Virus record (IMG/VR): IMGVR_UViG_3300017963_000025 | Coordinates: 1-64,000 of that record | DNA: 64,000 nt | Direction: 5' to 3' (one strand) | DNA from: a virus | Part shown: positions 2,900 through 46,197 of the stretch, piece by piece | Layout: each line of letters begins with the position of its first letter | Numbering within the stretch: the stretch's first letter is position 1 | Program-made: the position numbers and the translations under genes | Notes under the pieces: model-generated | The model's database searches: none | Seen by the model: only the letters and a program-made list of their open reading frames with translations | What the model was told of the DNA's origin: nothing

Positions 2900-5500
2900 A
2901 TGTGCTTGCAGAGCGAATGCGAACTTTACCCAAACAACCATGTCAAAGTACCGTATATCCGTGGGGATAACGGTATCATTTTTTACGGGGAATATCCGGG
3001 ATTCGAAGAGGAACGCCAACGGCTCCCCTTTGTCGGGGAATCCGGACAAATGGCGGCGGCATGTTTTCACGAGGCGGGATTGGATTGGAACCGAACAGCA
3101 AAGATGAACGCGCTACGGTGCAGAATTGACAAGGGAAAATTTTCGGATGGCCGTCTTACCAAAATGATCAAATGTTGTCGCGCCAACACGACGGAGGCAA
3201 TTGCCGCATTGGCCCCCCGTATCATCATCATGGCCGGAAATCTGGCCCTGAAACAACTGACCGGCCGATCCGGTATTACGGCAAACAAAGGGAAGTGGTT
3301 CCGGTCCAAGGACATCGACAATTGCTGGCTATTCCCGGTGAACAACCCGGCGTACATTTGCCGAAATCCACACTTGAAACCCGCGTACATTACCGCCCTG
3401 AACGTGGTAAGGGCGGCTGTTGAAAACAATTTCCAACCGGTGACGGAAATCACCGGCGCATCCTACCAAGAAATACAAAGTTTGAAATCGGAAACCACAA
3501 TTTTTACCGACACCAATGTTTTGATCGGACTGGATACGGAAACCCAGGGGATCAATTGGAATGATCCGAATTTTGTTCCCATATCCTTCTCGGTATCACC
3601 GGTAACAGGGGTGGGGTATGACATTGTGTTGTTTGAGGAAAACGAACAAAGGAATACGCATCAAATTCTCGAATCACTCCGGGGAAAAGTGAACCGGGCG
3701 GACTATCTTTGGCGAACAATCCGGTGGATGAGAAACGGTGAGCCAACGGACGTGCATGTCCGACCGGCATCCGGTTTCATGAGAAAAGTGACCGAGCTAT
3801 GGGAATTGGTAGAGAGTGACCGGATTAAAAAGGTGTTAATGAATGCGAACTATGACTACCACGTATTTGATACCTTGTTTATGGGCGTGTTCGGAAAAAT
3901 ACCCCGGTATCGCGGCTTTGTGGCGGATGTTCAGGCCAATGCCAACCTGATTGATGAAAATCAGTTTGTCAAACCGAATCTGGTATCCCTCCAACTCTCG
4001 TTCACAGACATCACCTCTGCGTATGATCACGCGTTTTCACAAGATTACGACAAAGCGGACATGCTGGCCGTCCCACGGAAACCTCGTGCCTATTATGCGG
4101 CGGCGGACAGTGACACCACCCGGCGGGTGTTCCTCTCTCAATGGAACGTGTTGAATCGGTATCCAAAGCTAAAAAACTACGCGTTAAAATTTACGGTTCC
4201 CACCCTGAACAGTCTGCGGGTGATGGAACGGAACGGCGCACAGGTGGATACCGATCGGTTGCCACGGATGACGGATCGGATGATCTCCACTATGGAAGCA
4301 TACGCCTCTGACATGCTAAAATTGGTGCCAAAAAAGATAAGAAAGCGCCATGAAAATCAGGAGAAATTCACCCGAAAAAAATTTCTCCTGGATATTATGC
4401 TGAACGGTTTCGGAATTAAGTGGAAAAAGAAGTCTCAGAAAACTGGGGAACCCGCATTTGACAAAGAGGTGCGAAAACTCCTGTTGGACCGGGCCACTGG
4501 GGATTGTCTAGAATTTTTGAATCTGTACGGACAATGGCAGGAAACCCACACCTTTGTTACCAGATACCTGAACGGGTTCAAAAAGGCGATTCACGTGGAC
4601 AATCGTATTCACACCAAATTTTCACTGGCCACCACGGTCACCGGCCGGGTGGCATCCTCTGACCCAAACATGCAGAACATCCCAAAGCGGTCCAAACTGG
4701 CAAAAGAAATCCGGTCCCTTATAATACCCCGTCCCGGCTATGTGCTGATGGCGGCGGACGAGTCACAATCCGAATTGCGGTGGATTACATTCCTGTCCGG
4801 TGATCCGGAAATGCACCGGGTGTATCGGGACGGGGGGGACATCCACCTGGAAACCGCCATGTCGATGGCACGACAAATGGAAAAAGAATGGTCGTCCTTG
4901 TCAGAGGATGAAAAAAAAGACATCCGCACCAAAGCAAAGCCGGTAAATTTCGGAGTGGTGTATCTGATCTCCCCGGAGGGATTGAAAACCGATGCAAAGA
5001 CCTCCTATGGTGCGGATATTTCGTTGGAGGATGCGGAAAGCTATATCCGCGCATTCTTCAATAAGTATCGAAATATTCCGTTATACCATCAGAATATGAT
5101 CGCGTTTGCCCAGAAATACGGATACGTTGAATCGGTATTGGGCCGACGACGACGATTGCCAGACATTCGGTCGGACAATATTCGGTTTCGGTCGGATGCG
5201 GAACGACGCGCGGTCAATTTCCCGATTCAGGGACCATCTTCCGATACGGTGCTGATTGCGTTGAATATGATCGAGGATACCGGGTATGATCCGGACGAAT
5301 TCCGTCCGGTACTGTTTATCCACGACGAACTGGTGGCAGAGGTACGGGAGGATAAAATTGATCATTACGCCCACCTGATGAAATGGGCGCTAACCAACCC
5401 AAACATTGTATTCAAACGGGATTTCGGGTTCGAGATGCCGGTCAAACTTGAATCGGATGTTAAAATCGGGTATAATCTGAGTGAGATGGCAGACCTCTGA
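2900..5500 (+). CDS. polA: Family A DNA polymerase with N-terminal family-4 uracil-DNA-glycosylase-like domain (SPO1 type) and 3'-5' exonuclease
   Basis: UDG motif GEYPGFEE..PFVGESG with Cys ligands; exo DTET; TGRVASSDPNMQNIP; motif A DESQSELR; motif B KPVNFGVVY; motif C IHDEL. Confidence 0.95.
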   Translation: MCLQSECELYPNNHVKVPYIRGDNGIIFYGEYPGFEEERQRLPFVGESGQMAAACFHEAGLDWNRTAKMNALRCRIDKGKFSDGRLTKMIKCCRANTTEAIAALAPRIIIMAGNLALKQLTGRSGITANKGKWFRSKDIDNCWLFPVNNPAYICRNPHLKPAYITALNVVRAAVENNFQPVTEITGASYQEIQSLKSETTIFTDTNVLIGLDTETQGINWNDPNFVPISFSVSPVTGVGYDIVLFEENEQRNTHQILESLRGKVNRADYLWRTIRWMRNGEPTDVHVRPASGFMRKVTELWELVESDRIKKVLMNANYDYHVFDTLFMGVFGKIPRYRGFVADVQANANLIDENQFVKPNLVSLQLSFTDITSAYDHAFSQDYDKADMLAVPRKPRAYYAAADSDTTRRVFLSQWNVLNRYPKLKNYALKFTVPTLNSLRVMERNGAQVDTDRLPRMTDRMISTMEAYASDMLKLVPKKIRKRHENQEKFTRKKFLLDIMLNGFGIKWKKKSQKTGEPAFDKEVRKLLLDRATGDCLEFLNLYGQWQETHTFVTRYLNGFKKAIHVDNRIHTKFSLATTVTGRVASSDPNMQNIPKRSKLAKEIRSLIIPRPGYVLMAADESQSELRWITFLSGDPEMHRVYRDGGDIHLETAMSMARQMEKEWSSLSEDEKKDIRTKAKPVNFGVVYLISPEGLKTDAKTSYGADISLEDAESYIRAFFNKYRNIPLYHQNMIAFAQKYGYVESVLGRRRRLPDIRSDNIRFRSDAERRAVNFPIQGPSSDTVLIALNMIEDTGYDPDEFRPVLFIHDELVAEVREDKIDHYAHLMKWALTNPNIVFKRDFGFEMPVKLESDVKIGYNLSEMADL

Positions 5501-8825: not shown

Positions 8826-9140
8826 ATGGAATTTGGCACGGCATCGGAGGCAGTTGACTTTGTGGACAGACAATTCCGAACCGCGACGGCGCGGGGCGTG
8901 AGTCATTGGGGAACCGGCGGGTGGCCGGAGTGGTCTGTAAAATTTAATCATTTCATCAATAAAAAAATCGAAACCGAGGGAGCGGATTCCGCGTGGTATT
9001 ACGTGCGCCTGTATTGGCAAAACACCACACACAAGCTCGGAAAAGACAAACTGGAACGAAAACCTTTCAATATCCGATTACGCCAGTTGAAAAGTGATAT
9101 CCGTAACTTGACAAAAAACAAAACCTGTGATAGTAAATAG
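8826..9140 (+). CDS. Hypothetical protein
   Basis: GAGGTG RBS. Confidence 0.55.
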   Translation: MEFGTASEAVDFVDRQFRTATARGVSHWGTGGWPEWSVKFNHFINKKIETEGADSAWYYVRLYWQNTTHKLGKDKLERKPFNIRLRQLKSDIRNLTKNKTCDSK

Positions 9141-9176
9141 GGTATCAATCACTTACAACGTAATCGGGAAAAGAAA

Positions 9177-9728
9177 ATGACACATAAGTACTCAGTCCGT
9201 GAGGGAACCTATCGCGGAAGAAATGGCATGCTCCAAAAATTGCGACTGTTCTTTATTGTGGGAGGGAAGGAAATACCACAATATAATATCTTACGGGAAG
9301 GATTAGTCAGACACGCCGATTGTCACAAAACCAGTCCACCCGCACACGACCTTGCATCAGAAATAAACAGGCTTGCAATCCGCGTCAGGTCATCCGTGTA
9401 TTTTGAAACCGAACTGGAGTACTGCAAAGTTTTCGTTTCACAGGAAGGACAGTTCAAACAATTCTATTCCTTTTATCTGCAATTTGTCCAACCCCCGAAA
9501 AAAATCGTTACCATTCGTCCGTTTGATCCTGATTCCCCCCTGATGTTCCGAGGTTCAGTTAGATTCCTAACTAAGGCCGAGGTAATGCAACTAATTGACC
9601 CGACAAGTACGTCGGCAACATTTTATCTGGCACAATCCACACTGCCAAGAAAAGTACTAGAAAACATGATTACTGTGCAAGAAAAAACGATTCGCGGGCA
9701 ACGGAAAATCCGTATCATCGCAAATTAG
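9177..9728 (+). CDS. Hypothetical protein carrying an inverted 60-nt dnaB-derived insert (9338-9397)
   Basis: 183-aa ORF; insert matches the reverse complement of 14612-14671. Confidence 0.6.
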   Translation: MTHKYSVREGTYRGRNGMLQKLRLFFIVGGKEIPQYNILREGLVRHADCHKTSPPAHDLASEINRLAIRVRSSVYFETELEYCKVFVSQEGQFKQFYSFYLQFVQPPKKIVTIRPFDPDSPLMFRGSVRFLTKAEVMQLIDPTSTSATFYLAQSTLPRKVLENMITVQEKTIRGQRKIRIIAN

Positions 9729-9756
9729 AAACAACAATTAGAAAAGGAGAATTAGT

Positions 9757-10131
9757 ATGTCTTTTTGGGCAACATCAAAAGTACCTATTGAAAGTATGCC
9801 ACTATTCTCATCACTTGCGGAAATAAGAGGAATTACAGTGGTAAAAATGGAACATGCCGAAGCTATAAGAAACGGATTAAAAAAAACGCATCGGCTTATG
9901 ATTGCCGATAAAGCAGAGGCATGGGTGGTGAGAGACAAATCCGGCAAATCGTTTCTGTACTGCGATACGGATCGGTCTTATAGCAAATTTGCCCGTAAAC
10001 AGATAAGAGACGGGATGACAATAATGCAGGAGTACACCCTCTGCAAATTGAAAAGTGCAATGGCCGGAAGAACCCTGCGAATCCAAGCGCAGAACGTGGT
10101 TGACAACCGACTGATATTGAAGGTGGCCTGA
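9757..10131 (+). CDS. DUF1257/Ycf35-like protein
   Basis: N-terminal MS-W-T-K-I pattern, C-terminal MQEY..K..A....I motif; lies beside a DUF2997-like gene. Confidence 0.5.
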   Translation: MSFWATSKVPIESMPLFSSLAEIRGITVVKMEHAEAIRNGLKKTHRLMIADKAEAWVVRDKSGKSFLYCDTDRSYSKFARKQIRDGMTIMQEYTLCKLKSAMAGRTLRIQAQNVVDNRLILKVA

Positions 10132-10134
10132 TAT

Positions 10135-10332
10135 ATGAGAGTATGCGAGAAATGTGCGACAGAGAATCACCCGGAATTCACCGAATTCAACACGCGCCTT
10201 GCACGATGCGCAAAGTGCGGAGATATGACATTGTGCATTTTGGAAAAAAATTTGCCACCCCCAAAATCCGTTCCGGTTCTGCCGACTGATAACGGGTACG
10301 ACTATATTTTTGGTAATAGCGAATGGTGGTAG
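10135..10332 (+). CDS. Small zinc-ribbon protein
   Basis: CEKC and CAKC pairs. Confidence 0.5.
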   Translation: MRVCEKCATENHPEFTEFNTRLARCAKCGDMTLCILEKNLPPPKSVPVLPTDNGYDYIFGNSEWW

Positions 10333-10345
10333 AAAGGAGGAATAA

Positions 10346-10528
10346 ATGCAATACACCATAACGGTTGAGGAAGATGGTTCCGTAAGAGTCGAAGGCAACG
10401 GATTTCAGGGAACGGAGTGTGTCAAACACAAAGATATTGACACGTTGCTAAAGGCCATTGGCACGGACAAACGAAATGTCACCATGAAAACCGCACAAAC
10501 CGCTGTTGGTATTCGTCTTCAAACATGA
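10346..10528 (+). CDS. DUF2997-like protein
   Basis: ITVEEDGSVRVEGNGFQGTEC signature; AAGGAGG RBS. Confidence 0.75.
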   Translation: MQYTITVEEDGSVRVEGNGFQGTECVKHKDIDTLLKAIGTDKRNVTMKTAQTAVGIRLQT

Positions 10529-10710
10529 TGAATAAGAGATATATACCGATCAATGATCCAAGATTGTATGCATGCTGTTCCAATGCCACCAGAAAAAAAT
10601 TTCGTGAAAGGATTTTGGAATTGAGAAATAAGGCAATAGCGAAAGGTATGCAACTTTTGGATGAGGACGACGTGCTTGATGAAGTAAAACGACGGAGGGA
10701 CGGAACATGA
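10525..10710 (+). CDS. Hypothetical protein
   Basis: ATGA overlaps at both ends. Confidence 0.5.
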   Translation: MMNKRYIPINDPRLYACCSNATRKKFRERILELRNKAIAKGMQLLDEDDVLDEVKRRRDGT

Positions 10711-10964
10711 TTATAACCATCACGCCGGACGGCAGCATTGAAATGGTTTATAACGATCTAATGGCGGACATACTGAATGACCTGGGAAACCTGTCTTGCC
10801 GACGTGCGTCAAATGTCGTTTTTAACGACACAACCAAAAAATGGGATGTTGTCACAACGAACGGCGATCCCATTCTGTCAGAAAAACGTCGGACAGATGC
10901 TATCAGAAGAGAAATTGATTATCTGGAGTGGTTATTGGAAAACGGGTGGGGGCCACCGAAATAA
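10707..10964 (+). CDS. Conserved small protein usually found with DUF1257/DUF2997
   Basis: ITPDGSI..VY.D....LG.L...RASNV......W pattern. Confidence 0.55.
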   Translation: MIITITPDGSIEMVYNDLMADILNDLGNLSCRRASNVVFNDTTKKWDVVTTNGDPILSEKRRTDAIRREIDYLEWLLENGWGPPK

Positions 10965-11073
10965 TCACAATGGCGGGATCATTTCAACCCCCACCCGCCC
11001 GCTTGCAGAGGTGCAATTGTGGACATCGGATATCCGTGTTATATGAAATTATTCCCGCCACGTCAAGCAAAAA

Positions 11074-11322
11074 ATGAGAGGAATCGAAATGTTTCAGCAT
11101 GAAATGGAATTCCGTGAAGATACGGAAATGATTGATTATGTGTTTGAATTTTTGGGGGTAACCCCCAGGGGCGCAATTATTGTAACGGATGAGAATAACC
11201 GCAAATTATTCCTGCCCCCGGATCATGTCGAACCCGACGAACCTCCGGAAGAACTCGAACCCGGAGAAACCGTGCTAATCCAAATACCCGTGTGGCTGGC
11301 GAAAAAGGAGGGACTTATCTGA
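11074..11322 (+). CDS. Hypothetical protein
   Basis: C-terminal IPVWLAKKEGLI, typical of a small phage family. Confidence 0.55.
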   Translation: MRGIEMFQHEMEFREDTEMIDYVFEFLGVTPRGAIIVTDENNRKLFLPPDHVEPDEPPEELEPGETVLIQIPVWLAKKEGLI

Positions 11323-11690
11323 TGGAGGGACCAAAAATAACGTATAAATGCAAAGTGTGTGGAGAAAAATTGACCGATTTCGAACAATTGCGGAAGCACT
11401 GTCCCCAAGATGAGCGGTTTGAAGATTGGATCAAACCGTTTGAACTTTGTCATTATACTGACGGTTTGTTTTGCAAAGAATGCCGTCAGAAAATAATTGA
11501 CAAACGTATCGCCGAGTTTGACGGGGACACGAAATACACAGATGAAATGATTTGCCCGCATTGCGGCTATGAATACTCGGACAGTTGGGAATTGCAAAGC
11601 GAATCCGACGAAATAATATGTGACGATTGCGGAAACGAATTTAGATATGAAAGAATCGTAACAGCGGAGTATATAACGAGTAAAATCTGA
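11322..11690 (+). CDS. Zinc-finger protein carrying a 23-aa segment identical to the SSB protein
   Basis: Four CxxC pairs; 11373-11441 matches 17977-18045. Confidence 0.65.
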   Translation: MEGPKITYKCKVCGEKLTDFEQLRKHCPQDERFEDWIKPFELCHYTDGLFCKECRQKIIDKRIAEFDGDTKYTDEMICPHCGYEYSDSWELQSESDEIICDDCGNEFRYERIVTAEYITSKI

Positions 11691-11710
11691 AATGAGGAGG
11701 GACTCATCTT

Positions 11711-11947
11711 ATGGCGACAAAAAAATCATTTGTAAAAAATATTTCATGGAACAACCACCCGCCTACTGAGAAGGACTTTCCAATTCTGATTCTTATTTAT
11801 TCGATGGGATCCGAAAAGATATATACGGACATTCTCAGTGCGGATATTATTAAGACGGATTCGCGACCGAATTTCAGCCAAATCACGTTCGGAACGGAAT
11901 ACGTGTGGAAAAGCCTGTTTGATCTGATGGTCCGACATGAAATCTAA
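11711..11947 (+). CDS. Hypothetical protein
   Basis: GAGGAGG RBS. Confidence 0.45.
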   Translation: MATKKSFVKNISWNNHPPTEKDFPILILIYSMGSEKIYTDILSADIIKTDSRPNFSQITFGTEYVWKSLFDLMVRHEI

Positions 11948-12043
11948 AGGAGTAGGAAAATATGTAAATTGTTAAAAGACTTGTATGTGGACCAACGTGA
12001 GTTTATTGGTGGACAAGAAATCAAGTGAGAAAGGAAAAGTGCA

Positions 12044-12274
12044 ATGAGTAAAGCCATTTCATATGAAGATTACCATGCATACGGATGTCCTGCATGTGAG
12101 TCAGGAAACAAAAAGGTTGCCATCCATATCCAGACACCTGTTGACGCATTGCTAATATGTTCGGAGTGCGGAATGGGTTTTATTGTGGCGTTTGACGGTG
12201 CGAAGGAAACACCAAACGGAACCGTTGTCGATCATCCGTTGAAAAAACAGACATGCTTAACGGAGTTGGGATAA
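12044..12274 (+). CDS. Zinc-ribbon hypothetical protein
   Basis: CPAC and CSEC pairs. Confidence 0.5.
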   Translation: MSKAISYEDYHAYGCPACESGNKKVAIHIQTPVDALLICSECGMGFIVAFDGAKETPNGTVVDHPLKKQTCLTELG

Positions 12275-12292
12275 TCCGCAAACGTTTGCGGA
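12275..12292. repeat. 18-bp palindrome, copy 4 (extends to 24 bp, 12272-12295)
   Basis: Exact match directly after TAA. Confidence 0.97.
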
Positions 12293-12368
12293 TTAAAAAT
12301 CATTACATTGTGATACTTTACTCGTCCAAAACAATATCACAATGTAATGATTTGACAGCTACCGTAAA

Positions 12369-12545
12369 ATCCAACCCATGGGAAAATATGGCCTTTTTTT
12401 CCCACCAGCGGGAATATGCGTCCCATGGGCGGGAATATGCGTCCCGCTGGTTGGATGAGTATATAAATATAAGAAATAAGATATAAGAAATAATAAGTGA
12501 ATAATAGCGAAATGAATTCCGCTGCTAGCAATTTTTTTATTTTTT
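12369..12545. other. Candidate replication origin (iterons plus AT-rich tract)
   Basis: GCGGGAATATGCGTCCC at 12408 and 12429 (21-bp period) inside nested inverted repeats, then ATATAAGAAATAAG-type AT-rich repeats; upstream of the initiator gene. Confidence 0.6.
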
Positions 12546-12656
12546 TGGGAAGGTGGATTTCCAGAGGGGAATCCAAAAGTTTGTATCAGCGCTACATTCA
12601 GATAGGATATAGGCGCGGCCAAAAGGTTTTACTTTTTTCAACCCGGAGGTGACAAA

Positions 12657-13544
12657 ATGACCACATTTCGAAAAAACAAATACCAGATTTCGTACCTGAC
12701 CCGCAAATCCGCCACGTTATTTTGTGGAAATACGGATCGGGAAATTGTTTGCCACATCATTGACCGCACATTGTCATGGGGGAAAATAGCCGAATTTATT
12801 CCGTATTCCGAGTTGGTTGAAGGATTCCCGGTATTGTGCTATTTTCCCCGTATATCCAGATCAGCCGCATATCGTTCCGTTTCAAATCTGCTTGACAATG
12901 GCATCATCGGAAGGCATCGGGAAACGCGATGCGTATATTCTGTGAATATTCCGGAATTCTACAAATTGTGGCATCGCATGTTTCACGACGCGCAAGACAA
13001 CAAATTGTGGAATACGGTGAAATCCGTGGAATCCGATATTCTGGACCAATACAACCGGTCGGATATTCGATTTGAACCCCTTACGCTGAGCAGCGAGGCC
13101 ACTATGAATATTGAAACCGCCATCCGTTTTGCCCAACGGAAATCCGTTGCGGCCCGAAAACGCAATGCCGAAAAACCGGTAAAAAATTCAAAACATCTCA
13201 TTTGTCTGATTCGCTATCTGGCGGACGACATGAAGGTGTATATCAACGAATATGTCACCGACAAAGTCCGGGGGCAGATGAACCATTTTATCAAATCCTA
13301 TTGCCCGTCGATCAAAAAAACGCCGGAGTGGTTCGTGCGCGAATCCATGGAGGAGTGGCCCCGGATGTTCAATGAAAAAATTGTGCTGAACCGCATGTTT
13401 TGCTTTGATGAGATGTACCGACGTAAGAACAAAATTTTTGAGCATCTGGTCCGGGACGAGTTGGACGATGCCGAATTCGGACGACCGAATGAACCGAGAG
13501 AAATCCGGATTATTGATTTGCGAACCAAAAAACAGTTGGCCTGA
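12657..13544 (+). CDS. Replication initiator, lambda O-like N-terminal winged HTH
   Basis: IIDRTLSWGK..FIPYSEL...ISRSAAYRSVSNLLDNGII resembles Phage_rep_O; heads the replication operon. Confidence 0.6.
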   Translation: MTTFRKNKYQISYLTRKSATLFCGNTDREIVCHIIDRTLSWGKIAEFIPYSELVEGFPVLCYFPRISRSAAYRSVSNLLDNGIIGRHRETRCVYSVNIPEFYKLWHRMFHDAQDNKLWNTVKSVESDILDQYNRSDIRFEPLTLSSEATMNIETAIRFAQRKSVAARKRNAEKPVKNSKHLICLIRYLADDMKVYINEYVTDKVRGQMNHFIKSYCPSIKKTPEWFVRESMEEWPRMFNEKIVLNRMFCFDEMYRRKNKIFEHLVRDELDDAEFGRPNEPREIRIIDLRTKKQLA

Positions 13545-13553
13545 CCGCGCAGA

Positions 13554-14279
13554 TTGCCGTATTTTCGATCTTTTCATGGCAACCCATATCTGACTATCAA
13601 AAAACAAACAAATGCCGAAATTCGGCAAATGAGAGGCTTTTACGCAATGACAATCACATACCCCTGGTCCGACACCTCCCATATCGAGCCGGACTTGCTG
13701 AAACTGGTAATGACGCATCTTCAAACGAATGTTGCCCGCCAACACGAAATTGACGAAAAAGAACGCATTGAAAAACTTACACTGACGATTCTCAGACAAT
13801 TGGAATCTGCCGAATCGCGCATGCTTTTGGTGGTGTCCGGTGATATCCGCCTCTTGCGAGATTTGTGGGTGGTGCCGGCCACGTACACGCTGACCGTGCG
13901 CCATGACGGAGAAATACCGGAGAGTCGGATCACTGATGCGAATCGTATCGGGGAATGCTACCGCTACCCGACACAACCGGTTCAAAAGGAAATTGATGTA
14001 ATCACCCGCACCGGATTTCTATTGTGGGAAAACATTGGCACCCCGTATTATCTGGCGAAAAGCCGAACGGCGGAAATCGAGGGGGTGTTGTCCGAACGGA
14101 TACGCCTGAAATTGCCCACCGTGTTCAGCCATTTTTCAACGCATTCGGACAACCGCGTTTTTCGGGAAATAAGCGTGTCCGTGGGAACGAAGATTGCCAC
14201 GATTTTGGAACAATGCGCGGATGTGCTGGTGGCCGAGTCCGGCAAGTCCGCTGGAACCGTGACGAAAGTGAGGATGTGA
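13554..14279 (+). CDS. Degenerate DnaC/IstB-like helicase loader
   Basis: FLLWENIG...VLSERIRLKLPTVFS resembles the DnaC C-terminal half; no intact Walker A; lies between initiator and DnaB. Confidence 0.45.
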   Translation: MPYFRSFHGNPYLTIKKQTNAEIRQMRGFYAMTITYPWSDTSHIEPDLLKLVMTHLQTNVARQHEIDEKERIEKLTLTILRQLESAESRMLLVVSGDIRLLRDLWVVPATYTLTVRHDGEIPESRITDANRIGECYRYPTQPVQKEIDVITRTGFLLWENIGTPYYLAKSRTAEIEGVLSERIRLKLPTVFSHFSTHSDNRVFREISVSVGTKIATILEQCADVLVAESGKSAGTVTKVRM

Positions 14280-15556
14280 TGTCGGTGGGCATAGGGCTGA
14301 TTAAGTCGTTGTGTGACCAAAACGTTCGCGCATCCGTTGTGTATGACCATGGGATCGGGGATCATCTGTTTACGCCGGACGAACGCGCCGCGTGGGATTT
14401 TGTTCGGGATTTTTGCACGACCCACGGACGCTATCCGTCTGTTGACACCGTAGTGGGCCATTATCCCGAATTGTCCGTCCGCTTTGACAATATGCCGGAC
14501 GAACCGTTTACCTATTGGGCCGACTTGGGCAAAAAAAGGCGGGTGACCAATCTGGCCAGGGAAATGGCGGACACGGTGCATCGGAGGATGTCCGCAGGTG
14601 CGAATATTGACACGGACGACCTGACGCGAATTGCAAGCCGGTTTATATCGGACGCGCGATCCTGCACAGGGTCAAAAATAGTATCACTAAGTGATATCAC
14701 TGAAGAATTGTTGCGGATGCATGACCACCGCCAACTGGCAACGGGCATTTCCGGTATTCCCACCGGGTTCCCGTTTTTTGACCGGGTGTTTGACGGATTA
14801 CAGACCGGGGACGTGCTGAGTCTGGTGGGGAAGACCGGCATGGGAAAGTCGTTTGTCATGGCGAAGATGTGGAACGCCGCATACGACAACGGGTACAGCC
14901 CGTTCGTGGCATCCATGGAAATGCCAATACCCCAACAGGCACGGCGCACATTGGCCCTGCGCTCACGACTTCCGGGAACGGCGATTCGCGTGGGCCGGTT
15001 GGACTTTGCCGGTCGGGAGTTATTGGGGCATACGGCGGAAGCGGTACGGGAAAACCGACAACAAATCTGGTTTACGGATCATGTCAAATCCGTGGACGAG
15101 ATTGCCGCCGTCGCACGTGACCTTGGGGCAAACCCGATATTTATTGACGGCGCGTATATTATTGACGAAAATGATCGCGGTGCGGTGTGGGAACGTGTGG
15201 GCAAGGTGGCCCAGAATATCCGGGATATGGCGATGAGCCTGGGGGTTAGCGTGGTGAGCAGCTATCAGTTCAACAATTCCGGGGAGGGGTTGCATAATAT
15301 CCATTTTAGCCCGAATATCAAATACCTTGCCAGTATTGTTTTGGGGCTGAGACAGGAGGAACCCCGCCCCGGCGTGGGGCGTGTGCTGAGCACCACCGAA
15401 CGGAAAATATTGGAAATCCTCAAAGGCCGGGAGGGGGAGTATGGGGCTATCGAGGTGGAATGGGATATGCGGCGGACCAATATCTGCCAACGGCGCGTGC
15501 TATGGTCACGGGCGGATGATGACGAATCCGACGGAGGGGACGAATGGAACGAATAA
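14279..15556 (+). CDS. dnaB: DnaB-like replicative helicase
   Basis: GIPTGF..FD....GLQ.GD, GKTGMGKS, SMEM, IFIDG, YQFN, KGREGE. Confidence 0.9.
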   Translation: MSVGIGLIKSLCDQNVRASVVYDHGIGDHLFTPDERAAWDFVRDFCTTHGRYPSVDTVVGHYPELSVRFDNMPDEPFTYWADLGKKRRVTNLAREMADTVHRRMSAGANIDTDDLTRIASRFISDARSCTGSKIVSLSDITEELLRMHDHRQLATGISGIPTGFPFFDRVFDGLQTGDVLSLVGKTGMGKSFVMAKMWNAAYDNGYSPFVASMEMPIPQQARRTLALRSRLPGTAIRVGRLDFAGRELLGHTAEAVRENRQQIWFTDHVKSVDEIAAVARDLGANPIFIDGAYIIDENDRGAVWERVGKVAQNIRDMAMSLGVSVVSSYQFNNSGEGLHNIHFSPNIKYLASIVLGLRQEEPRPGVGRVLSTTERKILEILKGREGEYGAIEVEWDMRRTNICQRRVLWSRADDDESDGGDEWNE

Positions 15557-16143
15557 ACATTGTAGGGTTGGAACAAGAGCGACGGATTATGGAAATCGCG
15601 GTCACCGGGAATCACGGGGCCATGCTGATTGGTCGAAAGAACAGTGGCAAACGGCTCATGATGAGGGAATTTCTAAACATAATCGGTTATCCTGATTCCG
15701 TACTGACCCATGCGTCCAACAAATATGTGGGACCGGATGACAGTTGTCTGGTGTTTGACCCGGCGTATTGCCACAACGGGAGTGTGCTGGCGAACAAACG
15801 ACACGGACGGGTGGGATGGAAAGACGTGGCCGGAAATCCGAAACAGGAATCTATGATTCACGTGGCAAAGCGTGTTTTTTTAGCGCGTTATTTTTTGTAT
15901 GAGAAGCCGTTCGATTATGATGCAATCCGAAAAAAATCGGACGGCGTTACATTGAAACTGATTGAGGAGGCATACGACCGGTTGTCACTGAATTCCGGGG
16001 ATGTCGTGGATTTGATGAACGTGGCCTACACGATTTTTATTTTGTCCCGTGAAAAAAAATTGGGTGTCGGACATGTTGCGGAGGCAATCGCCTACTGCCC
16101 ACAAAAATTGGATCATGAGCATGAAAAAAGAAACGATCCTTAG
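15544..16143 (+). CDS. Truncated ComM/YifB (Mg-chelatase-like AAA+) homologue
   Basis: IVGLEQERRIMEIAVTGNHGAMLIGRKNSGK matches the ComM AAA start; EAYDRLSL....MNVAYTI..L....HVAEAIAY matches the ComM C-terminus; middle missing. Confidence 0.65.
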   Translation: MERINIVGLEQERRIMEIAVTGNHGAMLIGRKNSGKRLMMREFLNIIGYPDSVLTHASNKYVGPDDSCLVFDPAYCHNGSVLANKRHGRVGWKDVAGNPKQESMIHVAKRVFLARYFLYEKPFDYDAIRKKSDGVTLKLIEEAYDRLSLNSGDVVDLMNVAYTIFILSREKKLGVGHVAEAIAYCPQKLDHEHEKRNDP

Positions 16144-17119
16144 ATTTCTGAACGCATTGGGCGCGGACATGACGCGGATGCGTATTCGGGGGGACTGGAT
16201 GAACGTGCGGTGTCCGTTGGCACATATTACCCACACCAACGGGGATGCGCATCCGAGTTGCGGAATTCTGATATCCGATGACGGACCGGCAATATACCAT
16301 TGTTTCGGGTGTTCCGGGGGCAAACCGGAGTCGTTGTCGTGGATGGTCCACACGATGTGGGTTGCCACGGGACGATACCCGACAGATGCGGCAAAGATAC
16401 TGGCCAGTGAAAATTTTGTATCAGAGAGTGACGCTCCGGTATTTGATTGGGACATCCGCAAACGTTTGCGGATGACACCCCTGGATGCCGACGTGTTGAA
16501 GCAATATCCGCCATTGTCCGACAGCGTATCGTGCCTGACCGCCATGGTGGTCCGGAACTGGCTTACGGAATGCAGGGGGTTGGCTCCAAGCATAATTGAC
16601 ACGCACGGGTTGCGGTATTCCCCAGAGAATTGTACCGTGGTGTTTCCGCTGACAGATCATGCCGGGAACATTTTTGTGTTGCAAGAGCGGATGATTGGTA
16701 CGAAAAAAATGTGGACCGTAAATGAAAACACGTCCGGTGTGCATGTTGACTACCCCACAATTCGCCATGCGGGGTGTTGGATGAATCTTAAAAACGCGGA
16801 TTGGGGTCGCCCCGTGATGCTGGTGGAAAGCGGATTTGACGCGGGCCGGATTGCGTCTCTCGGGTTTGACAATGTGATTGCGTCCGGGGGTACGGGTGTT
16901 ACTCCCGCGCAAATCGGGGCGTTGGCCGGTCACACGTATATTTTGGGATATGACAATGATCGGGCAGGTCAACAGGCAATGGCAAGAATTGCCCGTATGT
17001 TGGGGAATCATACGGTGTATGTGGCGGATTGGGGCGTGGTGGGGGTTAAGGACGGTGGTGATTTGGTTAATGCGGAACAATTAAAAAAAGTTTTGACGAA
17101 TACACGCCGCATGACTTGA
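16121..17119 (+). CDS. DNA primase (zinc-binding domain plus TOPRIM)
   Basis: CPL..H...HPS, CFGC; VESGFDA, YDNDRAG, KDGGD. Confidence 0.85.
   Translation: MKKETILRFLNALGADMTRMRIRGDWMNVRCPLAHITHTNGDAHPSCGILISDDGPAIYHCFGCSGGKPESLSWMVHTMWVATGRYPTDAAKILASENFVSESDAPVFDWDIRKRLRMTPLDADVLKQYPPLSDSVSCLTAMVVRNWLTECRGLAPSIIDTHGLRYSPENCTVVFPLTDHAGNIFVLQERMIGTKKMWTVNENTSGVHVDYPTIRHAGCWMNLKNADWGRPVMLVESGFDAGRIASLGFDNVIASGGTGVTPAQIGALAGHTYILGYDNDRAGQQAMARIARMLGNHTVYVADWGVVGVKDGGDLVNAEQLKKVLTNTRRMT
16455..16472. repeat. 18-bp palindrome, copy 5 (inside primase)
   Basis: Exact match; extends to 22 bp. Confidence 0.97.
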
Positions 17120-17178
17120 CTACCGATGAAAAAAACGGTATCTTTTAGTAATTTCAACAAAAAAAGGGGAAAAAATAA

Positions 17179-17409
17179 ATGAGTGAAAAATTGGTTAAAT
17201 TGTTGCTTAGACAGTACATTACCCAACTGAACGAAATTCAACAGGAAATTTTGGGATCACTGCCAGACGAATGTTTAAACAATACGGACAACGAAGGAAA
17301 CAAGTTTTCACCTCCGTGTATTGGAAGAGAAATACTCCACTATCCGATTCTGGACGGATTGGGCGATTTTATTAGTCGGATGCAGATGGACGAGGATTTG
17401 CTCGAATAA
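17179..17409 (+). CDS. Hypothetical protein
   Basis: ORF between primase and SSB. Confidence 0.45.
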   Translation: MSEKLVKLLLRQYITQLNEIQQEILGSLPDECLNNTDNEGNKFSPPCIGREILHYPILDGLGDFISRMQMDEDLLE

Positions 17410-17460
17410 AAAAATAATTACAAGGACAAAACAAAGAAACAAAAGAACGGAGAGGAAAAA

Positions 17461-18297
17461 ATGAATGATTGGTGCATTACCGGTGAAAAAGGATGGGATA
17501 TTGCGGAACAAGACGCGAAAGACAGACAACAGAGGTATGAAGAAAACAAGAAAATCAAATACCGATTTCGGATTCCGCCGAACAGTGAGGCCACGGTGCT
17601 GTGGTTGGACAACCTTTGGTATTTTCTGTATGAACATTCGGTCAGGTTGAACGGGTATTTTAGCCGGATGACCTGTATTCAGTCCAAGGAGGATTGTCCG
17701 GAATGTTTGCGCGGAGGAAGGCGCATATTCGGTGTGGCGTCTACAATTATTCGCCTGACGCCCTATGTTACGAGAAAAGGAGAACAACGAAATTATATGA
17801 AGTGTCCCGTGGTGTTCAGCGGGAAAGCGTTGGAAAATATCAAAACCCAACACCAAAATATGGATAAGAATATGATCGGATTGGTGTACCGGTTCAGACG
17901 CGGGTCCGACTCCAAAAGTTGTGCCACCGGGGAGGATTTCACCCCCATAATGCAAAACGGATCGGTGATCCGAATCACCGATTTTGAACAATTGCGGAAG
18001 CATTGTCCGCAGGATGAGCGATTTGAAGACTGGATCAAACCGTTTGATTATACCGAACAATTCCCGTTTTATCCGGCGGATGTGATGCGTCGAAAGCTCG
18101 GTATCCCGGACCCGATGGGCGCGGCGCAGCCCCACGGAACGGAAAGCACCGATTTGAATTCCATATTCGGAACGAATGCCGTGTCCGTCGCACCGACACC
18201 CGATTCTGGCGCACCTGCCAATATTGATGATTTGTTTGCAGGCGGGGGGTCACAACAAACAGAAACAGTGCCACCGGACGATGACATACCATTTTGA
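17461..18297 (+). CDS. ssb: Single-stranded DNA-binding protein (gp32-like, zinc-binding)
   Basis: RFRIP, EH..C...CPEC, acidic tail ending DDDIPF. Confidence 0.8.
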   Translation: MNDWCITGEKGWDIAEQDAKDRQQRYEENKKIKYRFRIPPNSEATVLWLDNLWYFLYEHSVRLNGYFSRMTCIQSKEDCPECLRGGRRIFGVASTIIRLTPYVTRKGEQRNYMKCPVVFSGKALENIKTQHQNMDKNMIGLVYRFRRGSDSKSCATGEDFTPIMQNGSVIRITDFEQLRKHCPQDERFEDWIKPFDYTEQFPFYPADVMRRKLGIPDPMGAAQPHGTESTDLNSIFGTNAVSVAPTPDSGAPANIDDLFAGGGSQQTETVPPDDDIPF

Positions 18298-19679
18298 TGA
18301 AATTCAGCGAGGCCACAGTCAGTACCCATGTGTTCGTTCCGAAGCATGAGGTAGATCCGGATTTGTTGGATGATTACGTCATCGAATCCGCATTTGAGGA
18401 TAATCGGCACGTAATCCGGACCTATGCGGAAACCGGTCGGCATATCGGATTCCCACGGAATTGTTTGCCACCGGGTTTTCGGGCAGAAAAGGTCTATGAC
18501 TTGCGTGTCACCGGCCCGAAAACCTACGGCACATTCACTTCCGAACTAAGACCGGACCAGTCCGACATTGTAAGGCGCACATTGGCAATATTACGCACCG
18601 AGGGCGGTGTGGTGATTCATGCTGATCCTGCTTACGGAAAAACCGTGTGTATTTTGAATATTCTGACCGAATTAAAGCGGCGGGCCATAGTTTTGGTACA
18701 CAAGAGGGATTTGGTATGGCAATGGGTGGAAAGAATCATACAACACACCACCATACCCCGGTCCCAGGTTGCGGTTGCGATGGACGGTGAAGTTGGTGCG
18801 TTGGACGGAAAAAATATTCTTGTCGGGTTGGTACATACTATCGGAAAAAATTGTTGGGGAGAGACACTTACGCACTGGCCGGGGGTGGTGGTGTTCGACG
18901 AAGTTCATAGCAGTGTGCCTCCGCAAACGTTTGCGGACGTGGCGGCAATGTTTCCAGCCAAATACCGAATCGGGGCTACTGCCACTCCACGGAGACAAGA
19001 CCGGATGCACCGGGTGTTTGAGCACCATATTGCAAGTTCGCGTCATCATGTCCGGGCGGTGGCTCCAACCCAAAACAAATCCGTGATCGTAATACATCGC
19101 TATTATGACCGTCATAAAATGCCGATTGAAGCGAAAAGCGTTCATGCAATTCGCGCACAGCTTTTTTATATCTTGATGAGTGACCCCGTGCGGAACCAAC
19201 TGATTGTCAACTATGTGTCATCGTTTGTGTCCGGGGGTCGCCGGGTGATTGTCGTATCAGATCGCATCTATCATTTGGCGGTGTTGGCGGCGATGACCCG
19301 GAAGAAACATCCGGACAAACAAGTCGGATTTTATACGAATCAGGTTGCGGTGCTGGACGAATACTGGACAGAGATTCGACGTACCACAAACACCAAAGCC
19401 GATCTTGATCTTACGGCCAAATATGCGGATGTGATATTCGCCACTTACAAAATGTTGGGGGAGGGGACCGATTTGGAAAATGTATCCGGAATGATTTATG
19501 CGATGCCCCGGACGGAGGTGGAGCAGTCCAAGGGTCGTATCGAGGGGCCGCGATCCGGCGGAAAAAAGCCCGTGGTAGTGGATATTTGGGACATGGTGTA
19601 CCCAACGGCCACGGGTTATGCAAAAAAGCGGATGTCGCATTATCAGTCGGTGGGTGCGTCCGTACATTACAGGGGGTAG
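18297..19679 (+). CDS. Superfamily 2 DEAD/H helicase
   Basis: AYGKT, DEVH, TATP, EGTD, QSKGRI. Confidence 0.9.
   Translation: MKFSEATVSTHVFVPKHEVDPDLLDDYVIESAFEDNRHVIRTYAETGRHIGFPRNCLPPGFRAEKVYDLRVTGPKTYGTFTSELRPDQSDIVRRTLAILRTEGGVVIHADPAYGKTVCILNILTELKRRAIVLVHKRDLVWQWVERIIQHTTIPRSQVAVAMDGEVGALDGKNILVGLVHTIGKNCWGETLTHWPGVVVFDEVHSSVPPQTFADVAAMFPAKYRIGATATPRRQDRMHRVFEHHIASSRHHVRAVAPTQNKSVIVIHRYYDRHKMPIEAKSVHAIRAQLFYILMSDPVRNQLIVNYVSSFVSGGRRVIVVSDRIYHLAVLAAMTRKKHPDKQVGFYTNQVAVLDEYWTEIRRTTNTKADLDLTAKYADVIFATYKMLGEGTDLENVSGMIYAMPRTEVEQSKGRIEGPRSGGKKPVVVDIWDMVYPTATGYAKKRMSHYQSVGASVHYRG
18920..18937. repeat. 18-bp palindrome, copy 6 (inside helicase, just after DEVH)
   Basis: Exact match. Confidence 0.97.
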
Positions 19680-25386: not shown

Positions 25387-26349
25387 ATGGCAAAAGCAAA
25401 ACTTGAAACAAAAACGAATGTGGGGCAGAGTACGATCAGCAAAACCGCGAGATCCCTGTACGATGCGATTATTAGTGCGGACAGTGTGATTGATGATTCG
25501 TTTGTGTCTTTGGCAGAAAATCTCCACAAGTTCAGTTCGATGGAATACTACCAACAATTCGGGTATTCCAGATTCACAGAGTTTGCGGAGAAAGAGGTAC
25601 GGATCGGTTCCCGGAAATCCGAATACATGGTGAAAATATGGAATTTCGTCAAGGATTGTGGTATTCCTACGAAAGAAGTAAAAAAACTCGGATGGTCAAA
25701 GATGAAAGAGGTGGCGCGGGTGGCATCCGTTGAAACCGCAAAGGCGTGGATGGAAAAAGCAAAAATGATGTCCACGCGGGATTTAATCGCGGAGGTGAAA
25801 AAACACAAAAATCCGTCAAAACCGGGAGATGAAAACGGAAGCACGACCGAGTTTAAATTCACTGTGGACACGGACGAATCCACCATTGTCACGGATGCCA
25901 CTAATTTGGCGAAGACACTCGGAGCGAAAACGGATGCGGATGCCATGCTGGTGATTTGTCAAGAGTGGATGGAGTTCAAGGGGGAAAGTCCGGTCATCAC
26001 GCCACTGGATACAATGCTTAAATACATGGCAGCTAATTACGGCGTGATCCTGACGGTTGCGGAACAACCTGAATCTGCGGAGGTGGCGGCGGAAAAAGAA
26101 TCAAAAGAATCGGCAAAGAGAAAAGAAACAAAAAAGAAAACAAAACCGGATGCAAAGCCGAAAAAATCCAGAAAAATCGTGAAGACCGTTCCACCGCCGG
26201 ATACAAGCTATAGCCCGGAAAGGGAACTGGACCGTATTATCGGAACCGAACCTCCTCCCCCGGAATTTGATTCGTTGGAATCAATTATGGCTGGTAGTGC
26301 GAAGGAAAAAGGAACGGATGATTTCGATTTGGACGCATTTCTGGGGTAA
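25387..26349 (+). CDS. Hypothetical protein (possible DNA-binding)
   Basis: GAGG RBS; GWSK motif, Lys-rich then acidic tail. Confidence 0.6.
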   Translation: MAKAKLETKTNVGQSTISKTARSLYDAIISADSVIDDSFVSLAENLHKFSSMEYYQQFGYSRFTEFAEKEVRIGSRKSEYMVKIWNFVKDCGIPTKEVKKLGWSKMKEVARVASVETAKAWMEKAKMMSTRDLIAEVKKHKNPSKPGDENGSTTEFKFTVDTDESTIVTDATNLAKTLGAKTDADAMLVICQEWMEFKGESPVITPLDTMLKYMAANYGVILTVAEQPESAEVAAEKESKESAKRKETKKKTKPDAKPKKSRKIVKTVPPPDTSYSPERELDRIIGTEPPPPEFDSLESIMAGSAKEKGTDDFDLDAFLG

Positions 26350-38286: not shown

Positions 38287-38830
38287 TGTACAATAAGCAG
38301 AGGAGGGTATTGTGTTTTGGGGGAAAGGAAAAAAAGTAATGTGTGGTGTATGCCATAAATGGGTGGAAAAGTCGAAACTAAAAAAATTGTGGCATACGGA
38401 CATCGTGACGGATTCGGACAATTCGCAACGGGCCGAGGGTCCGTTCCAACCTATTCTGATTTGCAATGAATGCATGAAAATGAAGGTGAATACCTAACAG
38501 GGGGGAGAGTGAAACGTATCAAACTTATATTTGTCGTGGTGGTTATAACATTCCTGTGTGGTTGTGTCAGTGGGGAGAAAAAGCCAATGAATGACAATAT
38601 CGACCCAATCCGCCAACAACATGAGCTAAAAAGGAATATTGATCTTGATGCTTGACAATATCCCTATGTATGTGCTAATCTGGGATATCAGGAAACAGGA
38701 AGAACAAAGCATAATCGTCAATGGCTTGGCTTGACAATAACAATTTTTTCCTTGTTCCGACTGTTTCCCTATTCCCTCGGTGGCGGGGGGCCGGGTGGCT
38801 CCCCGCTTTTTTATATTAGGAGGGGTGTGT

Positions 38831-39517
38831 ATGATACCGAACTTTGAACTTAGACACATGAAGCCGACAAGCGCAAAACTTTTTATGCGTCGATGGCATT
38901 ATACGCATACGTGCGGAAATATTGTTTGTGCGCACGGATTTTATGTGGAAAACCGACTATCCGCGATTGTTTCCTATACGCCTCCCGTGGGGCGGCACCT
39001 CCCAAACAGCATTTTGGAAAACGGGATTTACTCGGAATTTTTGGAATTGCAGAGATTGTTTACACATGACCGATTGCCGAAAAACAGTGAATCCAAGTGC
39101 GTGTCAATGAGTTTGAAGCGATTGAAACAGGATTATCCGAAGGTGGTTGTGGTCGTATCCTATGCGGATTCCGGGGCGGGTCATGTGGGATACGTATATC
39201 AGGCGACTAACTGGATTTATACTGGGAAAGCGTCCAACGAGCTTAAGATATTTATCGACGGAAAACGGGTTCACCGACGATCTTTGGTGGCAAGATACGG
39301 GACATCCGGGGTGCAAAAATTAAAATCCATGGGTCTGGATATTCGTGTGAGTGACGAACGGTTCCACAAACACCGCTATATTTTTGTTTTGGCCTCGTCA
39401 AAACGGGAACGGAAGCGAACGGTGCGACGGTTGAAGGTGACCCCGCTTCCGTACCCAAAGGGAAATATTCGGTATTACGATTGCGGGGCGAGTTGCTTTG
39501 ACAAGATAGAAGGATAA
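38831..39517 (+). CDS. Mom-like adenine-modification protein (GNAT fold)
   Basis: WHY, ELQRL....PKNSES, VSYAD...GHVGYVYQATNW.YTG, HKHRY. Confidence 0.75.
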   Translation: MIPNFELRHMKPTSAKLFMRRWHYTHTCGNIVCAHGFYVENRLSAIVSYTPPVGRHLPNSILENGIYSEFLELQRLFTHDRLPKNSESKCVSMSLKRLKQDYPKVVVVVSYADSGAGHVGYVYQATNWIYTGKASNELKIFIDGKRVHRRSLVARYGTSGVQKLKSMGLDIRVSDERFHKHRYIFVLASSKRERKRTVRRLKVTPLPYPKGNIRYYDCGASCFDKIEG

Positions 39518-41324: not shown

Positions 41325-41858
41325 CTATATTAGGACCATGTTATTTCCAGCAATATTTGTTTCAATATGTGTGGGTTTTGAATCAACAGGCTTGCCCATA
41401 TTTTCCTTGTAAATGAAATCCGAAACATGGTATGCGTTTACAAACTCTTGCGGGTACACATCATTGACTGGCATGTCCAACTTAATGCTGCCGTCCCGTG
41501 ACCTTCCAACCAACCAACGTTCACCCTCAATCGACACACGTACCATTTCATCCTCTTCGGCATTAGCCGTGCCATTTCGGATAATATCAAGATATTTGCA
41601 ACTTGCCTCATCCTGCAATTCGTCAGAAAGACGAACTTGGACAAATGTGTTTGCTCCGTAGCGTAGTACGTCGCCAGTTGCATGGTCACGTTTGAGTACT
41701 TCAAAATTAGTTGCGAATTCTTCCACATCCCTGAAATTTACAGCTCTGTCACGAACCGTAAACAGGATCAGTCCATCCATGTCTCTGACGCTAACTTGCT
41801 TTGTATTGTATCCCAATGTTTGTTTCATTTCTTTTCTGATTTGCTTCGTTGTTGTCAT
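41325..41858 (-). CDS. Conserved phage early protein
   Basis: AAGGAG RBS before ATG 41858, downstream of the repeated promoter. Confidence 0.65.
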   Translation of the reverse strand: MTTTKQIRKEMKQTLGYNTKQVSVRDMDGLILFTVRDRAVNFRDVEEFATNFEVLKRDHATGDVLRYGANTFVQVRLSDELQDEASCKYLDIIRNGTANAEEDEMVRVSIEGERWLVGRSRDGSIKLDMPVNDVYPQEFVNAYHVSDFIYKENMGKPVDSKPTHIETNIAGNNMVLI

Positions 41859-41880
41859 GGCTTGGCTCCTTTTTGGTTTG

Positions 41881-41976
41881 GGTTTCTCTCGCTGTCTGGA
41901 ATATATAATAATTCCTTTTAAGGCAATTGTCAAGTATTATTTTTCATATTTTTATTTTTTTTACACGGATGTACAC
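41881..41976 (-). promoter_or_regulatory. Repeated strong early promoter (96-bp exact inverted copy of 46280-46375)
   Basis: A-tract UP element plus TTGACA-17 nt-TATTAT. Confidence 0.85.
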
Positions 41977-44851: not shown

Positions 44852-45178
44852 TTATACTCTGCCAAACAAAATGTCAATCGGGTTAACACCGGTCATATCC
44901 TGTCTTTCCTCCAAATCTTCCTTGTCCAAGGTGATTTCATACCCTGCCAATTCATTTCTGTGAAAATCAAGGCTGTGCTGCGTGTTTCGTATGATAGATG
45001 CCTTGGTCTGGCCAATTACTCCGGGGAACAAGTGACCAAACTTTGCCACTGCTTCTTTGGCCGACATTTTTTTAACTTCGGCAAGTCTGCTTTCCAGGGT
45101 GTTGATGATTTCTCTCAATCTCAGGGTTTCTTCAAAATTTTCTATCCCGTAGATTTTTGTTTCGGTTGCGTTTGTCAT
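44852..45178 (-). CDS. Hypothetical early protein
   Basis: AAGGGGGT RBS downstream of a repeated promoter. Confidence 0.6.
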   Translation of the reverse strand: MTNATETKIYGIENFEETLRLREIINTLESRLAEVKKMSAKEAVAKFGHLFPGVIGQTKASIIRNTQHSLDFHRNELAGYEITLDKEDLEERQDMTGVNPIDILFGRV

Positions 45179-45218
45179 GTCGACCCCCTTTTTGGTTAGT
45201 GTGTTTCCCCGTTACTGA

Positions 45219-45283
45219 AATATATAATAATTCCTTTTAAGGAAATTGTCAAGCATTATTTTTCATATTTTTTATTTTTTTTA
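45219..45283 (-). promoter_or_regulatory. Repeated strong early promoter
   Basis: TTGACA (45247-45252 on minus)-17 nt-TATTAT with A-tract. Confidence 0.85.
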
Positions 45284-45374
45284 CATGATAACCGTCCAAG
45301 GCCATCCTGGCCACACGGTCAGGGGGCCATTCCGACAGAAATTCGTTCCAGCCCGCTCGAAGCGGGCTACTTTG

Positions 45375-46154: not shown

Positions 46155-46197
46155 GTGTCGGCCCCCTTGTGGTTAAGTGTTTTCCCCATGTTCTGAG

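Follow-up and report, generated by a model that had tools for sequence, protein, structure and literature searches.

How did 23 residues of a single-stranded DNA-binding protein (SSB) come to be encoded in the middle of an unrelated zinc-ribbon gene of the same phage, and from which ssb allele did they come? The peptide TDFEQLRKHCPQDERFEDWIKPF occurs twice in the record of an uncultured phage of 85,381 bp, which carries a 123-bp terminal direct repeat (found by repeat search and self-BLAST) and has a CheckV completeness of 100%. The window that we analyzed is the initial 64 kb of this record. An earlier note on the window had read one copy as a 69-nt piece of a foreign ssb allele inserted in frame into a zinc-finger gene, had set beside it a second insert taken from dnaB, and had offered either a fragment-capture mechanism or an SSB mimic as the explanation. 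The features concerned at the two ends of the ssb repeat are as follows.

11322..11690, plus strand: recipient gene, encoding a 122-aa zinc-ribbon protein (ATG at 11322 overlaps the upstream stop; GGAGG upstream)
11373..11441, plus strand: in-frame insert encoding TDFEQLRKHCPQDERFEDWIKPF (11373-11443 is 65/71 identical to 17977-18047, the identity extending 2 bases beyond the insert, to 11443)
11415..11438, plus strand: 8-bp inverted repeat with an 8-nt loop, near the right end of the insert, including the near-palindrome CAAACCGTTTG
11442..11443, plus strand: GA common to donor end and recipient; no other microhomology in the junction comparison
17461..18297, plus strand: ssb gene, encoding a 278-aa T4 gp32-like SSB that ends in DDDIPF (phrog, tblastn, structure model, and Foldseek)
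17977..18045, plus strand: the insert's counterpart in the resident ssb, encoding SSB residues 173-195 (base comparison; conserved in the SSB family)

A piece of ssb lies in frame within a zinc-ribbon gene

The two copies form a direct repeat of 71 nt at 92% (11373-11443 versus 17977-18047, family D11 of the repeat search), with 65 of 71 bases identical in a base-by-base comparison and E = 2.7e-19 when the complete genome of 85,381 bp was searched against itself by BLAST. Sixty-nine of these nucleotides are in frame in both genes and encode 23 identical residues, and the flanks of the two copies have no similarity over 60 nt on each side. As the earlier note had reported, all six differences (C/T, C/T, C/G, A/G, G/A, and T/C) fall at codon position 3 and are synonymous. 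Random encodings of the same peptide drawn from this genome's codon usage differ at a mean of 12.8 nt, and six or fewer differences are reached with P = 0.004. With only six differing nucleotides against the 12.8 expected, common descent is thus still visible at the DNA level.

The record is a metagenome assembly, and an assembly chimera or a strain mix-up has to be weighed as a source of the repeat. The junctions are intact in single Logan contigs from two runs (X1 and X2) that span window positions 9000-18500 with 0 differences at a word depth of ∼22-23. These contigs are equal in length and may be the source data of the record, so they show re-assembly and not independent occurrence; they come from another assembler and agree over 9000-18500, which excludes an assembler quirk. 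Two further runs (X3 and X4) gave only chance-like matches of 33-39 nt, without cover of the 9000-18500 region, and speak neither for nor against the repeat. No alternative contig was seen, the same gene flanks the insert on both sides, the insert is exactly in frame, and it differs from the resident ssb copy at six sites. Each of these points argues against a chimera or mix-up, which we regard as hardly credible. The exact zinc-ribbon protein and the exact SSB protein are each recorded on three contigs.

The recipient protein combines a conserved C-terminal zinc ribbon (residues 70-121, matching phrog_6504) with variable N-terminal zinc knuckles. Seven relatives were found in a set of 5.8 billion proteins, in addition to two IMG/VR loci (L002 and L003). 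Two further zinc-ribbon relatives are without the N-terminal region altogether; the comparison set consists of the six that cover the N-terminal site. None of these six (0/6) contains the 23-residue piece. Against a profile of the six relatives, the protein scores 116.1 bits without the piece, in a gapless alignment over profile positions 20-109, versus 105.5 bits with it. Once the piece is removed, YKCKVCGEKL followed directly by ELCHYTDGLFCKEC aligns to hykcedcGtredlctyreavlcdkc, and the gapless CGxxxxLC spacing is back. The gapless fit after removal, together with the 0/6 relatives that carry the piece, shows that the piece was inserted into the zinc-ribbon gene. Both the in-frame insertion and the compact finger left on its removal, as described in the earlier note, are borne out. 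As judged from this alignment, the insertion site is between the two knuckles of a CxxC...CxxC unit. When the full protein is aligned by HMMER, CKVC is paired instead with the first knuckle of the relatives; under that alignment, ∼22 residues (the end of the first knuckle and the second CxxC) would have been replaced by 25, which we think the less economical history, and we prefer a pure insertion.

A Pfam zf-C2H2 (PF00096) match covers residues 8-26 of the recipient at 29.4 bits, against a cut-off of 25.2, and runs across the insertion junction. It takes in profile positions 1-19 of 23 and has no second His at +3 to +5, H26 being followed directly by C27. A C2H2 finger at the recipient N-terminus was rejected on these grounds (second His missing, 19/23 positions, a match that straddles the junction), and we read the match as a chance chimera. 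The structure model of the recipient, with a mean pLDDT of 59.7, is too poor for placing the insert: residues 24-48 have pLDDT below 50, and the insert is mostly a low-confidence loop. The model contains a beta-beta-alpha arrangement (strands 8-9 and 16-17, helix 20-24).

The gene at the other end of the repeat matches phrog_17226. Its product has distant tblastn matches in six phage records, 5/6 of which are annotated as ssDNA-binding protein, and 319 relatives among 1.84 billion representatives, the nearest being 37% identical. The AlphaFold model is confident (mean pLDDT 85.2), and a Foldseek search of the PDB with this model returns T4 and RB69 gp32 as the top six matches (probability 0.99-1.00, TM 0.38-0.47). 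The phage SSB fold therefore matches the T4 and RB69 gp32 cores, although the protein is only 14-17% identical to the gp32 and RB69 chains in the Foldseek alignments. The likeness to T4 gp32, which includes an OB-fold core with a His/Cys3 zinc site, extends to a conserved His/Cys cluster, in which H59, C79, and C82 are invariant across 41 SSB sequences and C72 is at least 90% conserved, and to an acidic C-terminal tail. Taken together, the phrog, the tblastn matches, the relatives, the fold matches, and the acidic tail identify the product of 17461-18297 as a gp32-like SSB, with ssDNA binding predicted. It differs from T4 gp32 in ending in DDDIPF, the C-terminal tip of bacterial SSBs; the tail suggests that the phage SSB may use the host's SSB-interacting partners.

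The ssb region that corresponds to the piece is present in 40/40 aligned SSB relatives, and the conserved stretch of the family reads L.K..P.G....EWLKPFDY. Among 41 SSBs, P183 is kept in 37, W/Y/F at position 191 in 38, P194 in 38, D196 in 35, and Y197 in 40; a relative that is 29% identical retains CPEDEKFEDWIKPFDY. Neither H181 nor C182 is conserved. The SSB model places two short helices, 175-181 and 188-192, in this segment (residues 173-195), which has pLDDT ∼94-96 and belongs to the folded core, not to a flexible tail. The piece ends at F195, inside the conserved KPFDY motif, between KPF and DY. Native to all 40 SSB relatives and foreign to 6/6 zinc-ribbon relatives, the piece was, on this comparison of the two families, transferred from ssb to the zinc-ribbon gene, in agreement with the earlier proposal that ssb is the source.

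Which ssb allele was copied

Nei-Gojobori counting over the 23 codons gives S = 12 and N = 57, with Sd = 6 and Nd = 0 (pS 0.50, Jukes-Cantor dS ∼0.82, Fisher p = 7.7e-6). The simplest origin would be an old duplication of the phage's present ssb, a template only 6.6 kb off on the same molecule, followed by neutral decay of the insert. With one constrained and one neutral copy, ∼70% of the differences are expected to be non-synonymous, whereas 0/6 are (P = 7e-4). This result rejects neutral decay in place, and we consider a duplication of the present ssb highly improbable. We favor as template a diverged ssb allele, kept under purifying selection, of which the insert is a young copy; the alternative is strict selection on the peptide itself. 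The diverged allele proposed in the earlier note is thus supported, and a second scrap bears on the choice.

9345..9399, minus strand: second scrap, an inverted 55-nt dnaB piece within ORF 9177-9728 (repeat search and self-searches)
14610..14664, plus strand: resident dnaB counterpart, DnaB residues ∼196-214, within the phrog_19 match to residues 85-482 (self-searches)

The segments 9345-9399 and 14610-14664 are inverted relative to each other and match at 82% over 55 nt. Read in the DnaB frame, the scrap has Sd = 10 and Nd = 2 (pS 0.68), a level similar to that of the ssb piece. Read in the frame of ORF 9177-9728, it has Sd = 7 and Nd = 3, again mostly silent, as the two frames share their wobble positions; third-position differences in this scrap are silent on both strands. 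A search for relatives of ORF 9177-9728 in the 5.8-billion-protein set passed 1/46 candidates, the ORF itself. The second piece of the earlier note exists, with the same kind of synonymous bias; lying in an ORF without homologues, it is a candidate insertion, and its history is probably similar to that of the ssb piece. One donor lineage would explain both scraps, whereas selection would be needed twice, once on a peptide read antisense, which favors the diverged donor.

Two candidate donors fit these data equally: the ssb of a relative in a mixed infection, and an earlier ssb of this lineage that has since been replaced. A donor allele of the kind pictured in the earlier note was sought in protein sets and in viral, metagenome, and genome contigs and was found in none of these collections, nor did they yield an insert-free close relative. 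The SSB search of viral contigs returned one locus, 29% identical and not a donor, and the degenerate pattern CP.DE.FEDWIKPF led to the contig of that same relative only. The pattern FEDWIKPF gave 10 loci in metagenome contigs, comprising one distant SSB relative (46/71 nt) and nine unrelated genes, and seven loci in genome contigs, none of them an SSB. From 217 SSB candidates in the 5.8-billion-protein set, only the SSB itself passed. The helicase gene has no relative in the viral contigs. Codon usage was tried as a pointer to the foreign copy and rejected, the six differing codons being uninformative (summed log ratio -0.69).

Junctions, enzymes, and the routes to the insert

In the junction analysis that the earlier note had suggested, the right junction of the insert shares 2 nt (GA) with the resident ssb and the left one 0 nt; values against the flanks of the true donor may differ. 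Repeat search and base comparison found neither repeats flanking the insert nor a target-site duplication. A mobile element, an intein, and a CRISPR-type acquisition were each rejected, given the lack of flanking repeats and 0 Rfam matches in 9000-19000. A diversity-generating retroelement was likewise rejected, because the differences are not confined to template adenines and RVT_1 has 0 matches in the genome.

The 8-bp inverted repeat within the piece is perfect in the insert and has one mismatch in the resident ssb copy, and this single difference within the internal stem is uncompensated. RNA folding of the whole pieces is not significant (z -0.92 and -0.81; further z -1.10 and -1.98), and a search of 9000-19000 against Rfam gave no family at E up to 0.1. 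We rejected an RNA-element reading of the insert on these results. No promoter-like or terminator-like sites were found within the insert. Both genomic occurrences of CAAACNGTTTG fall at the right ends of the copies of the ssb piece.

The same is true of CAAACCGTTTG (11432-11442 and 18036-18046), found nowhere else in the genome, which consists of the core of a dispersed palindrome plus one extra central base. Its place at the ends of the piece may be fortuitous, these bases coding for the conserved KPF, or may be a hint to the fragment end. The dispersed palindrome, TCCGCAAACGTTTGCGGA, is a perfect 18-nt sequence scattered about every 4 kb from 2069 to 63509 in the window and beyond (for example at 12275-12292, 16455-16472, and 18920-18937), and its core, CAAACGTTTG, has 20 copies in the 85-kb genome, some within the primase and helicase ORFs. 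The genome holds other repeats as well. A family of ∼96 nt occurs in both orientations (41856-41976, 45178-45285, 46152-46381, and 50046-50145), one pair being 100% identical over 96 nt; its members contain TTGACA...TATAAT-like boxes and the palindrome TAATTCCTTTTAAGG and are probably strong divergent promoter-operator regions. Tandem paralogous small genes lie at 33.5-34.9 kb of the window, and outside the window, at genome positions 82,629-84,149, there is a long, internally repetitive coding region with units ∼60-70% identical. Other genes of the window include a Mom-like DNA-modification gene (38780-39514; PF25680, E = 3.7e-46) and a ferritin-like gene (54529-55086; PF00210, E = 2.4e-32).

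Searches of the complete genome gave 0 matches each for Ku (PF02735), ATP-dependent ligase (PF01068), PolX palm (PF14792), and reverse transcriptase (RVT_1). The same holds for 5'-3' exonuclease (PF02739) and RNase H (PF00075), and no FEN-type domain was found in the genome either; JP1 and TM16, two related phages introduced below, annotate an RNase H. Flap processing is a lead only, the lack of PF02739 and PF00075 being judged from the phage genome alone. Residues 23-165 of the family-A polymerase (window 2900-5497) form an N-terminal domain of the uracil-DNA-glycosylase superfamily; the enzyme also has a 3'-5' exonuclease domain and lacks one of the 5'-3' type. The recombination set of the phage consists of RecA/UvsX-like, endonuclease I-like, Cas4-like, and RuvC-like genes. 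These stand in a replication module (DnaB, primase, SSB, helicase, HTH regulator, RecA-like, endonuclease, Cas4-like, RuvC-like) that is syntenic with Rhodobacter phage RcTiptonus and Agrobacterium phage JP1. The order of the module is also kept in Rhizobium phage TM16, whose annotation gives names only to the helicases, primase, recombinase, and RuvC-type resolvase and lists the SSB hit as "hypothetical". Cas4-like, RecA-like, and resolvase genes are annotated in RcTiptonus and JP1 too, TM16 naming just the recombinase and RuvC-type resolvase.

Whole-genome DNA and six-frame self-searches, which the earlier note had suggested for finding more diverged duplicates, gave three short matches between unrelated ORFs (71, 55, and 27 nt), that is, two besides the ssb piece: the dnaB scrap and a perfect 27-nt match. 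The latter is inverted (25615-25641 versus 48273-48299) and joins gene 25387-26346 (phrog_17202, residues 77-85) to the 5' part of the DNA methyltransferase ORF 48179-49945. The copy at 48273-48299 lies upstream of the conserved methyltransferase domain, maybe in the leader of the gene, and the match may be a third scrap. Self-BLAST of 50-kb stretches of RcTiptonus, JP1, and TM16 returned 0, 0, and 0 matches between unrelated genes more than 2 kb apart, the five hits of TM16 all falling within one repetitive gene. The same recombination genes are thus present in phages whose 50-kb stretches hold 0 scraps, so those genes do not explain the scraps. Capture by way of the Cas4-like nuclease or a PolX, as the earlier note had conjectured, is left unsupported: Ku, ligase, PolX, and reverse transcriptase are all lacking from the genome, and the module is also annotated in the phages with scrap-free stretches.

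On balance, we think it probable that the insert is a tolerated scar of illegitimate repair or replication from a diverged ssb allele. In the course of break repair or recombination-dependent replication, perhaps while two phages shared a cell, a template switch or the capture of a short single-stranded fragment would have brought 69-71 nt of an ssb gene into the zinc-ribbon gene, in the loop that separates its two CxxC knuckles. The template would have been a diverged allele and not today's resident ssb, and an earlier resident ssb may have been lost in a recombinational exchange of the dnaB-ssb module. A similar history would hold for the inverted dnaB scrap, which lies 2 kb upstream. The insert would persist because it is in frame, contains no stop codon, and occupies a tolerant loop. 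An end inside the KPFDY motif of the donor and a low-confidence loop in the recipient model are as expected for an arbitrary fragment. The size of the piece and the phage's genes for recombination-dependent repair and replication are in line with such an event. The insert is most likely a passenger loop, and a functional motif within it is possible but unsupported.

The main rival is one of function, in which the 23 residues were captured long ago and have been kept by selection in the zinc-ribbon protein. Such a co-opted motif might dock on the contacts of the SSB surface, or it might complete a C2H2-like finger with the CKVC knuckle. The 0 non-synonymous versus 6 synonymous differences would be seen just as well if the peptide were under selection in the zinc-ribbon protein, and the zf-C2H2 match across the junction (residues 8-26, 29.4 versus 25.2 bits) and the beta-beta-alpha arrangement of the model point the same way. 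A diverged-allele donor, however, gives the same pattern without selection, and the dnaB scrap, read as a different peptide, has the same wobble-only bias, so that selection would be needed twice. The classic second His at +3 to +5 is missing, and the recipient model is poor just there, with pLDDT below 50 for residues 24-48. The piece comes from the confidently folded core of the SSB model, not from a free tail, and is cut within the KPFDY motif. We therefore judge selective retention unlikely, and the SSB mimic of the earlier note, weakened by the folded core (pLDDT ∼94-96) and the cut inside the motif, is unlikely as well. In a bolder form, both larger scraps (ssb in sense, dnaB in antisense) would be kept pieces of a competitor's or predecessor's module, with the SSB-core peptide carried on a zinc-knuckle scaffold as a decoy or adaptor for an SSB partner or for SSB. 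We think this quite unlikely; if it were true, a protein motif would have moved between unrelated phage genes as sub-genic DNA and been fixed by selection.

A dedicated process, of the phage or of its host, could also insert 25-70-nt pieces of the replication genes of co-infecting relatives into early genes. One 85-kb genome holds three matches between unrelated ORFs (71, 55, and 27 nt), against none in the 50-kb stretches of RcTiptonus, JP1, and TM16, distant relatives that share its replication module, and three coding scraps versus 0 in three such controls could be more systematic than accident. Both larger pieces derive from the dnaB-ssb module, lie no more than 2 kb apart, and are alike in pS. 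Against such a process, the genome encodes no Ku, ATP-dependent ligase, PolX, or reverse transcriptase, the insert has no flanking repeats or target duplications, the orientation is inconsistent (one direct, two inverted), and the comparison is of three cases with three control stretches only. We find a dedicated process distinctly improbable and continue to favor a tolerated scar.

Comparison with known systems

The ssb piece matches an identifiable template gene elsewhere in the genome (65/71 nt, E = 2.7e-19), as a templated insertion does, and its 69-71 nt is in the size range of the distant templated insertions that arise at breaks in yeast rad27, which are nearly all <100 bp with a median of 88 bp and were linked to unprocessed flaps (PMC11724301). 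The likeness to such insertions (yeast Break-Ins data, PMC11724301) and to microhomology-mediated template switching of the MMBIR/FoSTeS type (MMB-TI, PMC8421209) lies in a short (<100 bp) copy of a distant sequence whose donor gene stays intact, in the occurrence of both direct and inverted orientations, and in events that can cluster. The present case differs in that it concerns a phage genome, that the template was a diverged allele and not the resident copy, and that the event has been fixed in frame inside a gene. The junction microhomology is only 2 nt and 0 nt against the resident allele, and the eukaryotic enzymes (Pol delta, NHEJ factors) are inapplicable, the phage having no Ku or ligase.

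We found no description of sub-genic templated insertions in phage genomes in the open-access literature that we searched. A single event without its donor in hand is a modest finding. Sub-genic in-frame scraps of this kind would be phage illegitimate recombination at its smallest scale, and the spelling of the piece records an ssb allele that is now gone from, or was never in, this genome, that is, a fossil of a mixed infection or of a replaced module. If such scraps are common in uncultured phages, they could trace recombination partners and would illustrate a route by which small early proteins gain new loops and motifs.

Phage mosaicism, by illegitimate or homeologous recombination among co-infecting relatives (PMC2327257, PMC3945230, PMC8136500), offers the other comparison. 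It too brings the DNA of a diverged relative into a genome, and this phage has a recombinase of its own. Classical mosaic joints, however, swap whole genes or modules at corresponding positions, whereas here a sub-genic piece of 69 nt lies ectopically inside an unrelated gene. Set among templated insertions and fragment captures, the distinctive feature of this one is its diverged donor.
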